A stretch of DNA of 48,984 nt from a virus, in IMG/VR virus record IMGVR_UViG_3300031837_000019; one strand, written 5' to 3'. A program made the position numbers and the translations under genes. Numbering within the stretch: position 1 is the stretch's first letter; every line of letters starts with the position of its first letter. Shown here piece after piece: positions 14,147 to 48,984 of this stretch. The notes below the pieces were generated by a model. The model was not told where the DNA came from. It made no database searches and worked only from the letters and a program-made list of their open reading frames with translations.

Positions 14147-14560
14147 ATGAGAACCTATGATGCTTTTAAGATTGCGTTAGCAATTAAGCACTTTTTAAAG
14201 ACAGAAGAACAGGTTGACCCAATTGAATGGTTGAGTAAACCAGAACATATTGTCTTAGAGAATGAGTACGGTGATTTAGCACTATTTGAATATAGTTTCC
14301 CTATTAAGAAAATCTACTCCGGTCATTACTATTTCAAGTCTCGTGGTAAGCAAGCTATTCAATCTGCAAGGGGTTTTCTTGACGAATTGTTCAATACGTG
14401 TTACAATATAAATGTGGTGATGGGGTTAGTCCCAATTGAACGTAAAGAGGTCAAATGGTTGACCCGTCGTGTCGGATTTACCTCTCATGGTCTTGAAGAA
14501 ATTCATGGACAGGAATATGAATTATTCATCATAACAAAGAAAGAATTTAATAATGAGTAG
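14147..14560 (+). CDS. AT-rich moron-like ORF, possibly GNAT-like (tentative)
   Basis: 137 aa, preceded by a 70-nt gap. Much lower GC than its neighbours. HYYFKSRGKQA..GF..EYELFIITKKEF loosely resembles an acetyltransferase core. Confidence 0.4.
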   Translation: MRTYDAFKIALAIKHFLKTEEQVDPIEWLSKPEHIVLENEYGDLALFEYSFPIKKIYSGHYYFKSRGKQAIQSARGFLDELFNTCYNINVVMGLVPIERKEVKWLTRRVGFTSHGLEEIHGQEYELFIITKKEFNNE

Positions 14561-15113
14561 TATCTTTGGCGGTTCACAACAGCAATCGCAATCTACTTCC
14601 AGCTCATCCAATCAGGCATACCCGTACCTTCAGCAAGCATTGGGCGGAAATGTTAGCAATGGGTCAAATGCTGGTAACCAACTGGCCAGTATGTTGGGAC
14701 TTAATGGTACACCCGCACAAGCCACAGGATTCAATAATTTCCGAAATAGTACTGGATATCAGTTTGGTCTGAACCAAGGTATTCAGTCTATCACAGGCAA
14801 TGCTGCCACACAGGGTCTACTTAATTCGGGTTCGACCCTAAAGGCGTTGGACACATACGGTCAGAATTATGCCAATACTCAATATGGTAATTATACCAGT
14901 ATGCTCCAAAATCTCCTTAGTGGTGGTAACACATCTGCTTCTGTCATTGGTGGTGCTGGTAATGTGTACAATAGCCAAAGTACTGGGTCTGGTTCTTCTA
15001 ATGGAGGGGGTATCGGTGGTGCTATCGGTTCTCTGTTGGGTAAGGGGGGTGCTGGTATATCGTCTGGCGGGTCTGCACTTGGTGGCCAACTAGCAGCAGC
15101 AGGAGTTTCATAA
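14553..15113 (+). CDS. Gly/Ser/Asn/Gln-rich internal virion (ejection) protein candidate
   Basis: 186-aa low-complexity ORF directly upstream of two larger internal-protein candidates. Confidence 0.5.
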   Translation: MSSIFGGSQQQSQSTSSSSNQAYPYLQQALGGNVSNGSNAGNQLASMLGLNGTPAQATGFNNFRNSTGYQFGLNQGIQSITGNAATQGLLNSGSTLKALDTYGQNYANTQYGNYTSMLQNLLSGGNTSASVIGGAGNVYNSQSTGSGSSNGGGIGGAIGSLLGKGGAGISSGGSALGGQLAAAGVS

Positions 15114-45393: not shown

Positions 45394-45412
45394 GAGTTTG
45401 GGTTGATGTGAA

Positions 45413-45436
45413 AAATAGAGACAGCAAGCTCTATTT
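45413..45436 (-). terminator. AT-rich hairpin with T run (weak terminator candidate)
   Basis: On the - strand: AAATAGAG-cttgctgt-CTCTATTT followed by TT. Confidence 0.4.
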
Positions 45437-45574
45437 GTTAATAGCAAGTCAGTTGTATGAGTGGTTTAAGGTTGCGTAATGGCCCACCCCGAGTATGTGT
45501 GGTGTTTCCGTTTCCCCTCACACAAAACGCAAAGAATTCCATCAATGCGCCTTGCTCATCTAACTGAGCAATAG

Positions 45575-45859
45575 TTACAAATTGTTGAGATGACTAATCA
45601 GTTCAGACTCATCATCCCACTTTAGAAACGGAAACGCCTTTATGACGTTATGCAAATAACTACCAACGGATTCCGCATTACGGAGACCCGAATAGATTTC
45701 TTGTGAAGGCATAGCGGGGTGGTGAATTTCGTAAGAATAGAGCCCGCCAGACAGGAAACGAACAGCGATTGTGTCCGTTTGTTCATCAAAAGCCACAGCA
45801 TCCACATTACTTGAGGTGACTTCCTCCCAAGCAATCTCCGATAAGGCTGTTTGTCGCAT
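45575..45859 (-). CDS. KTSC domain protein
   Basis: SSNVDAVAFDEQTDTIAVRFLSGGLYSYE..P...Y..L..AESVGSYLHNVIK fits the KTSC pattern with a central YxY. The ATG at 45859 is preceded by AGGAGA. Confidence 0.65.
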   Translation of the reverse strand: MRQTALSEIAWEEVTSSNVDAVAFDEQTDTIAVRFLSGGLYSYEIHHPAMPSQEIYSGLRNAESVGSYLHNVIKAFPFLKWDDESELISHLNNL

Positions 45860-45916
45860 TTCAATATCTCCTAATTCATAATACACCTACCTAACCACAC
45901 TCGGTTGAGCATGAGA

Positions 45917-46018
45917 GAGCACACACAGCGGTTTTGGCCTTACGGGTCATTGTCTGTATGGCGTTTGAAGCCATAAAACATGCATTTGCCGGTTAATGGT
46001 CCAGTTGTGTATGTGCTC
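45917..46018 (-). other. long-loop stem with arms gagcacacaca / tgtatgtgctc
   Basis: 10 of 11 arm positions pair. The mismatch is C-A on + strand RNA and G-U on - strand RNA. Shares the 14-mer tgtatgtgctcact with 46541-46554. Confidence 0.5.
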
Positions 46019-46088
46019 ACTGATACTCAAATAGTGACCTTACCTGAACAATTGAAGATCAGGATGATTATGACAAATATTGACCCAA

Positions 46089-46244
46089 TCATGGCGATTT
46101 GATCACGTTATCGGCGTGACTGAACACACCATTTACGGTGCCGCCAAGTCGAGACATCGTACCAATGAGAAACAAGACCATCAAGCACAACAGCAAGCCA
46201 TATTCAGCCGCAGATGCGCCGCATTCATCTGTGAGATATTTCAT
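46089..46244 (-). CDS. flp: Flp/Fap-family (Tad, type IVb) prepilin-like protein, 51 aa
   Basis: Hand translation gives MKYLTDECGASAAEYGLLLCLMVLFLIGTMSRLGGTVNGVFSHADNVIKSP. It has the G/ASAAEYG processing motif plus a hydrophobic helix, as in Caulobacter PilA (DESGATAIEYGLIVALIAVV). GGGGA lies 7 nt before the ATG. Confidence 0.7.
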   Translation of the reverse strand: MKYLTDECGASAAEYGLLLCLMVLFLIGTMSRLGGTVNGVFSHADNVIKSP

Positions 46245-46509
46245 GATTAAATCCCCAATAAAGCCCCCGAATTGAGCAGTTTAACGACTGCAAATATCTG
46301 CTGCACCATCCGGGGGGCGGTTAGATGGGGCAGAAAGATGTCTACTGCTGCTCAGGTCGCTCATAAGCCAGACAACAAAATCCCACTACCCTCTAGGTGT
46401 AATGGACATAACATCAATCTGACTTACAATTCACATCCTTTATATTTATGCTCATTAGTTTACCCACATAGAGCGAGGTGCATAACCACAGATAATCTTG
46501 TGGTTGGGA

Positions 46510-46551
46510 GAGCACATACACACAGAGTTGTGGCGATGCATGTATGTGCTC
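46510..46551 (-). other. perfect 11-bp stem-loop gagcacataca / tgtatgtgctc
   Basis: 20-nt loop; lies about 65 nt downstream (- sense) of the stop of the 254-aa gene. Confidence 0.6.
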
Positions 46552-46617
46552 ACTAAATCACAAGTAATAGTTACGCCCCCAAAGCTTTCACCCTGAGGGC
46601 GCAACCATTAGGCGTTG

Positions 46618-47382
46618 TTATTGGGCGTTGGCCGCTTCGACCTGTGCAGTGGCGCGCTTCAGATCGGCCTCTGCCTTCCGAGCATCTTGCGTCGCATCGG
46701 AGAAGCTGTTGAGCGTCTGAAGAACACCCTCAATCTGGTCGAAGGCTGTGTCCATCTTGTCCAGATGAATACCGTCGTAGAACGGCTTCCCTGGAACAAT
46801 CGGACCCACGACCTTACCGTCAACGATCTTGGTGTTGTCGATGGCACGAGTGTACTCACGCCTAGCCGCTTCAAGCTTGGCAACGATGCCGCCCTTGAAT
46901 ACGGGCTTGAGCGCATCAACCTGTTCAGCGGCCTTGGCTAGGGTCCAGAACGGATTGGCCATGGCCTCTTCGATCCGCCATGGACGCGGTTGACCGTCCA
47001 GAGTACCGGACAGCTTGATGACGTCCTTAACAAGCTCCATGGGCGTGTATTCGCGCATATGGAAGATGATTCCCTTTACGCGATATCCATGGGCAGGGAG
47101 CTTGTCAGCGGCCTGGAGGACCTCCACCAACAGACGACGTGTCAGTGAGGTGTCCCCATGCTTTTGAGTATGGAGATAACACTGAATGAGGTTGTTGTGG
47201 ATACGTCTATCAATGTCTGACAGGTTCGCCTTGATGACGTTCTGGTCAGACTTGATGACTTCCTTGTCCCACAGGATGAATTGTGGCTTCCCATCAACGA
47301 CCTTAGCCATTTCGGGAAGGACCAATTCAGCTTGGTTTTTCGGTTCCATAGTGTGTAGGTTCCCTTTTGCAGTCACTACCAT
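46618..47382 (-). CDS. hypothetical protein (254 aa)
   Basis: Long GC-rich ORF with a coiled-coil C-terminus. Its start codon lies inside the inverted-repeat arm 47378-47407. Confidence 0.65.
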   Translation of the reverse strand: MVVTAKGNLHTMEPKNQAELVLPEMAKVVDGKPQFILWDKEVIKSDQNVIKANLSDIDRRIHNNLIQCYLHTQKHGDTSLTRRLLVEVLQAADKLPAHGYRVKGIIFHMREYTPMELVKDVIKLSGTLDGQPRPWRIEEAMANPFWTLAKAAEQVDALKPVFKGGIVAKLEAARREYTRAIDNTKIVDGKVVGPIVPGKPFYDGIHLDKMDTAFDQIEGVLQTLNSFSDATQDARKAEADLKRATAQVEAANAQ

Positions 47383-47407
47383 TAGTGCTGCGCAGAGTAG
47401 ATGAGAC
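47378..47407. repeat. 30-bp inverted repeat, left arm
   Basis: The reverse complement, gtctcatctactcTgcgcaGcactaatggt, matches 47981-48010 at 28 of 30 positions. Confidence 0.9.
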
Positions 47408-47414
47408 CCACACG

Positions 47415-47645
47415 TTACGCCGCAACAGTCTGCCGACGATCACGAAGTATCTGTTGAGACACTACGTGGCCTTCATGTGACTGATACGGCTGGATTGGAA
47501 CACGCCTAGCCCAGCCCCCTGTTTGAGGCATAGGAAGGCTAGCTTGAAAGAACTGAGCAATATTTTCAGACACAAATGGTCCAAAGTGTAGTTGCTGCGA
47601 TTTTGGGCTGTCTCGGTATACAACCAGATAGCTAACGGGTTTCAT
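47415..47645 (-). CDS. hypothetical protein (76 aa)
   Basis: ATGA overlap with the upstream 104-aa ORF. Confidence 0.5.
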   Translation of the reverse strand: MKPVSYLVVYRDSPKSQQLHFGPFVSENIAQFFQASLPMPQTGGWARRVPIQPYQSHEGHVVSQQILRDRRQTVAA

Positions 47646-47956
47646 GTCAGATACACAGGAATTGGGACAACACGATACTTTGCATTGAACCCGAATTTCC
47701 GATTACTATTTCGGAGCTTGTTACGATAACTCTGAGCCTCAATGGTCATTTGGGCTTTCGTTCCGATGCGGATCGGACCCAACTGTCCACCTACCGGCGG
47801 GAACCGGCAGAGAAAAGGTTCATAAATGACGTTAGACGTCCCGAGAATTGCATAGAGCATGGATAAACCCTCTGGTTTCATGATTGAATGAACACTGCGA
47901 TATGAAGACCACATATTTGGACAGACGACTATGTGAGATGTTATTGATTTTTGCAT
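47642..47956 (-). CDS. hypothetical protein (104 aa)
   Basis: ORF with AAAGGGG about 10 nt upstream of the ATG. Confidence 0.5.
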   Translation of the reverse strand: MQKSITSHIVVCPNMWSSYRSVHSIMKPEGLSMLYAILGTSNVIYEPFLCRFPPVGGQLGPIRIGTKAQMTIEAQSYRNKLRNSNRKFGFNAKYRVVPIPVYLT

Positions 47957-47980
47957 GAGCAGTGACCCCTTTCCAAAGGC

Positions 47981-48010
47981 GTCTCATCTACTCGGCGCAA
48001 CACTAATGGT
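47981..48010. repeat. 30-bp inverted repeat, right arm
   Basis: gtctcatctactcGgcgcaAcactaatggt. Confidence 0.9.
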
Positions 48011-48451
48011 TGCGTGCTTAGGGATCACTCAGACATTGCATAATGCAATGCTGGGGCTCAACCCAAGCGTAAGACGTTGCTTCCCCTCAATCTCACAGTC
48101 ATCCCACATCGAACGGCAAACGGATTGCTAGGCCCGTTCACCGCCTCATGGGTGCGAGATTGTGGGGCCAGACCAGTGACGGATCGAATTACCCAAGCGT
48201 CCCGGCCGCTTTAAGCCGGTCTATAGCTCGGCACGCTCCCTGACGGTCTAGCGTCCCAAATCGGCACTTACCATTTGGCAGTTACCAGTCACCAAGGCCC
48301 TTAACAGCGACACCCTTATTGGAGACCATACACGATCGCCCAGACAGTTAGCCTAGGTTAGATCGGTTGATCCTTATAGGTGTCACCAGAGGTGCATATG
48401 CCCTTGGCCGGGTCCTGACCGGACCTCGTTTGTAGTCCGTATGTTATAACC

Positions 48452-48685
48452 CTAGTAACGTAGCAGCTTATACCCGGTCACCTTCACAGGATCGGGGGGA
48501 TTGTCTGCGAACTTGCTATGGGGCTTCATGGCACGGTGAGGCTTAACCCTCAAGTTGAGGGCGGACCTAACTATGCCCTGTTGCAACTTACCGCAATCGG
48601 GTTCATATCCAGCGTTCTGCGCAGCCTGTTTAAGGGCGGCTTGACGCGCTAGCAGTCTCCGATGCGGGTTCAGGCGCTTGCCCAT
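48452..48685 (-). CDS. small basic hypothetical protein, probable first gene of the - arm
   Basis: 77 aa; strong SD AAGGAG 7 nt before the ATG. Confidence 0.6.
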   Translation of the reverse strand: MGKRLNPHRRLLARQAALKQAAQNAGYEPDCGKLQQGIVRSALNLRVKPHRAMKPHSKFADNPPDPVKVTGYKLLRY

Positions 48686-48819
48686 GGCAAGTCTCCTTAG
48701 CCGCTAGGGTTCACGCGGTCCAAGCGGACCTTGCGTGGTCTCGGGGGTGTGTCCCCTTTGACAAGACCAGGTATAGCACTACGTTTTGCAATAGTCTAAT
48801 CACGAATGCGTGATGTGGT

Positions 48820-48856
48820 TTATCGTTTATCGATATATTGTTATCGTTTATCGATA
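48820..48856. repeat. two perfect 16-nt direct repeats (ttatcgtttatcgata) spaced 21 bp apart
   Basis: Copies at 48820-48835 and 48841-48856. Each contains the palindrome tatcgata. They lie in the divergent control region. Confidence 0.9.
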
Positions 48857-48857
48857 C

Positions 48858-48984
48858 GGTTAATTCCTACCGCTGCAATGAGGATTTGCATGTTGCAATA
48901 CCCTACCTGGGGGGTAGGATAAAGTGGGGATCCGACAGAGCGTTTTTGAGGTCACCTCTTTTATTTTATAAAAAAATGAAGTTT
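48858..48984. repeat. terminal direct repeat, right copy
   Basis: Identical to nt 1-127. Confidence 0.95.

Follow-up and report, generated by a model that had tools for sequence, protein, structure and literature searches.

IMG/VR virus record IMGVR_UViG_3300031837_000019 (here called the window, meaning the whole stretch of 48,984 nucleotides (nt) that was analysed) is a complete circular phage assembly in which bases 1-127 are identical to 48858-48984, giving a true genome length of ~48,857 base pairs (bp) once this 127-base overlap is removed. The plus strand carries the structural genes and the minus strand the early and replication genes. Within the early operon, a conserved and covarying long-range helix on the transcript, formed by the arms of an inverted repeat (47378-47407 and 47981-48010), closes a loop around a self-contained small-gene translation unit. 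Along the minus strand the order is a gene for a 77-amino-acid (aa) protein, ~440 nt free of open reading frames (ORFs), the 5' arm of the helix, a 104-aa ORF, a 76-aa ORF, the 3' arm, a 243-aa gene and a strong hairpin, with the following individual features.

48452-48685, minus strand: 77-aa first early gene, encoding a basic protein
47996-48014, minus strand: hairpin U (CGCAAC-CAUUAGU-GUUGCG), made of the core of the 5' arm and its 5' flank
47981-48010, minus strand: 5' arm of the long-range helix (RNA ACCAUUAGUGUUGCGCCGAGUAGAUGAGAC), its outer 16 nt a conserved core and its inner 13 nt lineage-specific
47994 (partner 47394), minus strand: central C·U mismatch, at the border of the conserved core and the variable inner helix
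47957-47980, minus strand: leader from the 5' arm to the first loop ORF, with the Shine-Dalgarno sequence GGAAAGGGG
47642-47956, minus strand: accessory 104-aa ORF (72 aa from an alternative start at 47860), present only in this phage
47415-47645, minus strand: conserved 76-aa gene with the motif YFGPFVS, always last in the loop
47378-47407, minus strand: 3' arm of the long-range helix (RNA GUCUCAUCUACUCUGCGCAGCACUAAUGGU), beginning 7 nt past the stop of the 76-aa gene
47369-47391, minus strand: hairpin D, made of the core of the 3' arm and its 3' flank
47350-47368, minus strand: conserved leader of the 243-aa gene (AAAAGGGAACCUACACACU), outside the helix
46618-47349, minus strand: conserved 243-aa early gene, with a weak match to phrog_1448
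46565-46611, minus strand: element T, a 21-bp hairpin just 3' of the 243-aa gene

The arms are complementary at 28 of 30 positions with 573 nt between them, as an earlier note on this DNA had reported, and they bracket the 104-aa and 76-aa ORFs, which overlap stop to start in the sequence ATGA. The mismatch pattern described there is also borne out: in minus-strand RNA one of the two exceptions is a U·G wobble (48000/47388) and the other a C·U (47994/47394), whereas in plus-strand RNA both are mismatched. The repeat is by far the strongest within the last 3 kb of the window, with a score of 24 against a mean of 11.0 (standard deviation 0.9, maximum 13) in 200 dinucleotide-preserving shuffles of that 3-kb region. 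The earlier note had also called for a fold of the transcript, and the minimum-energy fold of the whole 671-nt stretch does contain the long helix (z = -8.3). The arms are single-copy in the genome, with one pair per genome. The exact arm sequence pattern is not present in IMG/VR, while the conserved core 16-mer matches 41 IMG/VR stretches, with the partner arm found only in members of this phage family; an Rfam search at E ≤ 1 over 45400-48984 returned nothing.

Comparison with relatives, likewise suggested by the earlier note, showed the arms to be conserved and covarying. Twenty distinct relatives, found through the neighbouring 243-aa protein (35-59% identity to the window), make 21 lineages together with the window, and an inverted repeat of 22-35 nt lies at the same place in 20/20 of them, the arms being separated by 215-692 nt. 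Over the outer ~13 bp the sequence is conserved (CGUUAGUGYUGCG paired with CGCARCACUAACG), whereas the inner 12-15 bp differ among lineages while complementarity is kept. In an alignment of 17 lineages, which leans toward structure because it is anchored on each genome's own repeat (these repeats were each detected independently), pairing holds in 88% of cells compared with 28-48% when the partners are slid by 1-3 columns; changes on both sides occur in 20 of the 30 pairs, and none of 500 shuffles matched the observed values. Nearly all lineages have one non-wobble mismatch, mostly between two pyrimidines, in the central helix (alignment columns 19-22), and in most of them it falls at the boundary between core and inner helix. 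Paired in the early mRNA, the arms give a helix of 26-30 bp interrupted by one central mismatch, and as two strands the full duplex has a predicted energy of -44 to -61 kcal/mol. The repeat is thus very probably a selected RNA helix.

The imperfect positions bear on the strand on which the pairing acts. Transition mismatches in the stems appear on the gene strand as G·U in 25 instances and as A·C in 3, and when counted as distinct position/lineage classes as 13 G·U against 3 A·C (binomial p = 0.02). This excess of G·U favours pairing of the sense strand, which in the window is the minus-strand transcript. The earlier proposal of a long-range RNA duplex on the early minus-strand transcript is therefore supported, by covariation in the 20 relatives together with the strand-specific wobbles.

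The reading frames of the loop lie wholly between the arms. A homologue of the 76-aa protein ends the loop in every lineage, with GPF.S invariant within YFGPFVS, the counterpart in one relative (L042) being doubtful, strongly diverged and only 46 aa long. The stop codon of this 76-aa-type gene lies 2-38 nt, mostly 7-15 nt, upstream of the 3' arm, and in most lineages the first loop ORF begins 16-28 nt past the 5' arm. In the window the Shine-Dalgarno sequence of this ORF lies 10 nt inside the loop and outside the arms. With this spacing of start and stop, ribosomes could begin and end translation without opening the helix. The AlphaFold model of the 76-aa protein has a predicted local distance difference test (pLDDT) score of 92 and no Foldseek match in the PDB; searches of the 104-aa and 76-aa proteins against Pfam, PHROGs, PADLOC and PDB sequences were all without match.

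The slot ahead of the 76-aa gene holds 0, 1 or 2 ORFs, with 10 such ORFs falling into at least 8 unrelated types. Accessory ORFs occupy it in the window and in relatives L005, L015, L021, L022, L037 and L057, and in the window, L005, L015, L022 and L037 the accessory ORF overlaps the start of the conserved gene through ATGA or GTGA. The closest relative, L044, lacks the 104-aa ORF, and its small conserved gene is driven straight from the conserved Shine-Dalgarno sequence and ATG. Relative to L044, the window carries ~315 nt inserted immediately 3' of the ancestral ATG, so that the 104-aa ORF has taken over the ribosome-binding site already there, and its ATGA end overlaps the start of the older gene. 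No homologue of the 104-aa ORF was found outside this phage. The variable cargo of the loop points to a defined slot for the acquisition of new genes in this phage family.

The start of the next gene most likely lies outside the arms. The earlier note had taken an ATG at 47382, within the 3' arm, as that start; this codon opens the longest frame (254 aa), yet the gene most likely starts at ATG 47349, giving 243 aa. This ATG is the start chosen by the gene caller of the public contigs, and a conserved leader, (U)GGAACC..AAAGGGAACCU, lies 2-8 nt upstream of the start in all relatives. In L044 a distance of 37 nt separates the arm ATG from the true start, which puts that ATG out of frame with the gene. 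From the start and leader evidence, neither the true start codon nor the ribosome-binding site would lie within the arm, both being placed 11-29 nt beyond it, and the proposal that a buried start codon imposes a translational lock on a 254-aa gene is not supported. More generally, in hok mRNA the cistron ends pair in a fold-back that masks the Shine-Dalgarno region, and a lock of the hok or icaR type was rejected here: the Shine-Dalgarno sequences and starts of the loop ORF and of the 243-aa gene lie outside the pairing, and the arm ATG of L044 is out of frame. A conserved anti-Shine-Dalgarno element upstream of the 5' arm was also considered and set aside on inspection, the fold of the window pairing UCCCU (48024-48020) with AGGGA in an arrangement that is not kept in relatives.

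The leader of the 243-aa gene (47347-47368) contains two GGAACC motifs a few nt apart, the second copy in the window including the start codon (AUGGAACC); judged by its motifs, the double GGAACC could be a protein-binding site or a two-GGA (CsrA-like) site. The 243-aa protein has no match in Pfam, PADLOC or a PDB sequence search and among PHROGs only the weak one to phrog_1448, and its AlphaFold model (pLDDT 79) has no Foldseek match in the PDB.

The conserved core of each arm can also fold locally. Hairpins U and D were found in 17/17 lineages tested, with energies of -7 to -12 kcal/mol and -6 to -11 kcal/mol, respectively, and each shows compensatory changes; in L037 the sole A·C mismatch of the long helix becomes a proper pair in hairpin U. 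In L057 (IMGVR_UViG_3300047172_000014, 14555-14597) the 21-nt unit of hairpin D, UAUCGCAGCACUAACGCUGCG, is tandemly duplicated.

By analogy with known processing sites, we give about an even chance to the main role of the helix being that of an RNase III-type processing and stability element. In this mechanism the RNase III of the host would cut the duplex near the central mismatch to yield three RNAs, namely the leader with the 77-aa gene, the cassette mRNA and the mRNA of the 243-aa gene. The ends of the cassette mRNA would stay paired through the inner half-helix, while the outer half-arms would refold, U capping the upstream RNA at its new 3' end and D the downstream RNA at its new 5' end, with separate and stabilised early messages as the outcome. 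That U and D would be left at the new ends after a cut would account for the palindromic cores. A duplex of at least two helical turns is a known substrate of RNase III, and the helix reaches this length in all 21 lineages (22-35 bp). A central irregularity is typical of phage RNase III sites, and the position of the mismatch at the boundary of core and inner helix, together with the ability of both outer halves to refold as hairpins (17/17), fits such an enzyme. So do the spacing of start and stop codons within the closed loop and the presence of further intergenic stems in this operon. A remote homologue of the 243-aa protein (28.6% identity, E = 4e-4) occurs in the T7-family Brevundimonas phage BC (OK335783.1, L043), near a gene annotated as a protein kinase in the T7-family early region, and 30 nt upstream of it, at 1294-1387, lies a local hairpin of 21 bp, split 7+3+11 by two 1x1 mismatches and closed by a 48-nt loop. 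This hairpin may be taken as a lead, not proof, for RNase III processing.

Several points weigh against processing of a sense-strand RNA duplex as the full explanation. The strict sequence conservation of the outer core exceeds what a double-strand-specific enzyme needs, and hints at a sequence-specific partner or at alternative pairings. The complementarity to the 5' arm region that is found on the terminator-like element T is left unexplained by simple processing, and G·T wobbles would equally favour a structure of the sense strand as single-stranded DNA.

Element T bears on the alternative that survives best. A T-type hairpin of 16-21 bp follows the 243-aa gene and is itself followed in most relatives by a U-run, which makes it an intrinsic terminator. 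While a search with the core motif recovered only the U and D copies, T came to light because it can pair with the flank of U: 18 of 21 positions in its 5' shoulder (46591-46611) are complementary to 48003-48023, which spans the loop and 5' half of hairpin U. The complementarity is present in the window and ~10 relatives and absent or insignificant in 7/18 lineages. In 8 loci, no other segment anywhere in the locus matches the reverse complement of U as well as T does, and T follows U more closely than D (in L012, for example, 13/14 compared with 6/14).

These pairings, along with the alternative hairpins and their compensatory changes in all lineages tested and the fact that T forms the base of hairpins with U-runs after them, raise the possibility of an RNA switch that is not cut, in which the long helix would alternate with hairpins U and D and, in about half of the lineages, with U:T pairing, to set translation of the loop genes or read-through of the terminator. 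We consider this a possible but doubtful account, in that the long helix exceeds the hairpins in stability by 20-35 kcal/mol, the 3' arm is transcribed ~770 nt ahead of T, T is missing or insignificant in those 7 lineages, and no arm contains a Shine-Dalgarno sequence or start codon. A broader scheme, which we think unlikely, would make the 5' arm region the hub of a three-site switch, pairing with itself (U), with the 3' arm 0.2-0.7 kb downstream or with the T shoulder ~1.4 kb downstream. Whether the cassette helix is formed, cut or opened would then decide read-through into the remaining early genes, and the closed loop would offer incoming genes a protected landing pad immediately 3' of the ancestral start codon.

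A feature acting at the level of DNA, in which a phage protein would bind the two arms as a matched pair of sites (resembling an operator or origin) or the single-stranded sense strand would form a hairpin, is very unlikely. The outer core is near-palindromic (CGCAAC-N7-GTTGCG) and strongly conserved, as such sites might be, and single-stranded DNA tolerates G·T wobbles too. However, the inner 12-15 bp vary from lineage to lineage and are nonetheless reverse-complementary and contiguous with the core, neither of which paired protein sites need, the mismatch bias is strand-specific, and the element lies within a transcribed operon with spacing tied to stop and start codons.

The geometry of a 30-bp inverted repeat flanking 573 bp had further suggested the crossover sites of an invertible segment, or the terminal inverted repeats of a small mobile cassette. 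It is extremely improbable that the arms are either. The segment has one orientation in 21/21 lineages and in the assemblies of 24 near-identical contigs, and a Pfam scan of 17 ORFs revealed no recombinase. Neither arm recurs elsewhere in the genome, and their sequence is not in IMG/VR, where the core occurs only in this family. The idea that they mark the footprint of an inserted foreign cassette is countered by their presence in syntenic position in every relative, which leaves no empty site; only the 104-aa ORF within the loop is an insertion. A miniature inverted-repeat transposable element or insertion sequence-like element was rejected on the single pair per genome, the lack of empty sites and the lack of a flanking duplication, no target-site duplication being seen by eye in the bases beside the arms. 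The toxin-antitoxin pair proposed from the layout of two small ORFs with a 4-nt overlap is almost certainly not what the loop encodes, since the 76-aa protein is conserved and soluble, its partner ORF is variable or absent in relatives (the 104-aa ORF, with no homologue outside this phage, is missing from the closest relative L044, and the slot in others holds at least 8 unrelated ORFs or none), and Pfam, PHROGs and PADLOC gave no matches.

Several other features surround the element. With the ends overlapping as a circle, the early leftward region adjoins an AT-rich region with promoters facing terS, where two near-consensus sigma-70 promoters are directed toward terS at 153-181 and 390-418. 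The 77-aa protein has a conserved arginine-rich N-terminus (MGKRLNPHRRLLARQAA; MARLNxKRRR.. in relatives) that, as a sequence, recalls the RNA-binding arginine-rich motifs of lambdoid N proteins, and searches of Pfam, PHROGs, PADLOC and PDB sequences gave no match for it. Directly 3' of its stop codon (48381-48451, minus strand) is a block of ~55-70 nt that is 80-85% identical in relatives whose proteins share only ~45% identity. Two hairpins occur in the block, one of 5 bp around a 5-nt loop (GGUCC-NNNNN-GGACC) and the other CCAAGGG..CCUUUGG; the block is without an Rfam match and may be a leader RNA element or a promoter. A leader for rrn-like antitermination (rrn denoting the ribosomal RNA (rRNA) operons) was also looked for and rejected, as no boxA within 2-3 mismatches occurs on the minus-strand leader of the window or of the 20 relatives.

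The same operon has additional intergenic stems of 15-21 bp. Two further strong stems on the minus strand (46510-46551 and 45917-46018; z = -7.7 and -4.5) share a plus-strand 14-mer, UGUAUGUGCUCACU, one forming a 15-bp hairpin that immediately follows the terminator-like hairpin and the second closing ~80 nt. Beyond the 243-aa gene, a 51-aa ORF (46089-46244, minus strand) falls slightly short of the threshold for the Flp/Fap pilin family (29.2 bits; cutoff 32.2) and a 103-aa ORF (45575-45886, minus strand) has a KTSC domain; both ORFs are kept in the early regions of relatives. Near-identical copies of the phage are common across metagenome samples (62 index blocks; 99.95-100% identity over 4 kb). 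A blastn search of the region against 50,697 phage records gave zero matches, and relatives were absent from the bacterial genomes searched.

We found no description of the element in full-text literature searches. A ~30-bp long-range helix drawn around complete protein-coding genes, in the early operon of a widespread uncultured phage family of soil and peat, can be set against several known systems. RNase III cuts the duplexes that flank 16S and 23S rRNA (PMC8708148). As in these rrn stems, segments several hundred or more nt apart pair over more than 20 bp and form a loop around a functional unit, and the length of the phage helix and the position of its central irregularity fit a double-strand cut. 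Unlike the rrn stems, the phage loop carries protein-coding genes in place of rRNA, and its leader has no rrn boxA. Similarly, T7 early mRNA contains five sites at which RNase III cuts it into mono- and dicistronic messages (PMC4858673). Like the T7 sites R0.3 to R1.3, the phage helix lies between cistrons of an early operon transcribed by the host polymerase, and it shares with them a central irregularity in a helix of ~20 bp. Whereas the T7 sites are local hairpins, the strands here are 215-692 nt apart with genes between them, and the helix has no sequence similarity to the T7 sites and no Rfam match.

The pairing of cistron ends to influence RNase action or stability is also a feature of Staphylococcus aureus icaR (PMC3868564) and Bacillus subtilis hbs (PMC5737220). 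Pairing between the 5' and 3' untranslated regions of icaR masks the Shine-Dalgarno region (PMC3868564); unlike icaR and hok, the phage element has its Shine-Dalgarno sequences outside the arms and forms a unit inside a longer operon. If the helix is cut, it would provide a simple handle on the separation and stabilisation of early phage messages, and bacterial viruses would use for mRNAs the processing known from rRNA, in which the loop is excised.

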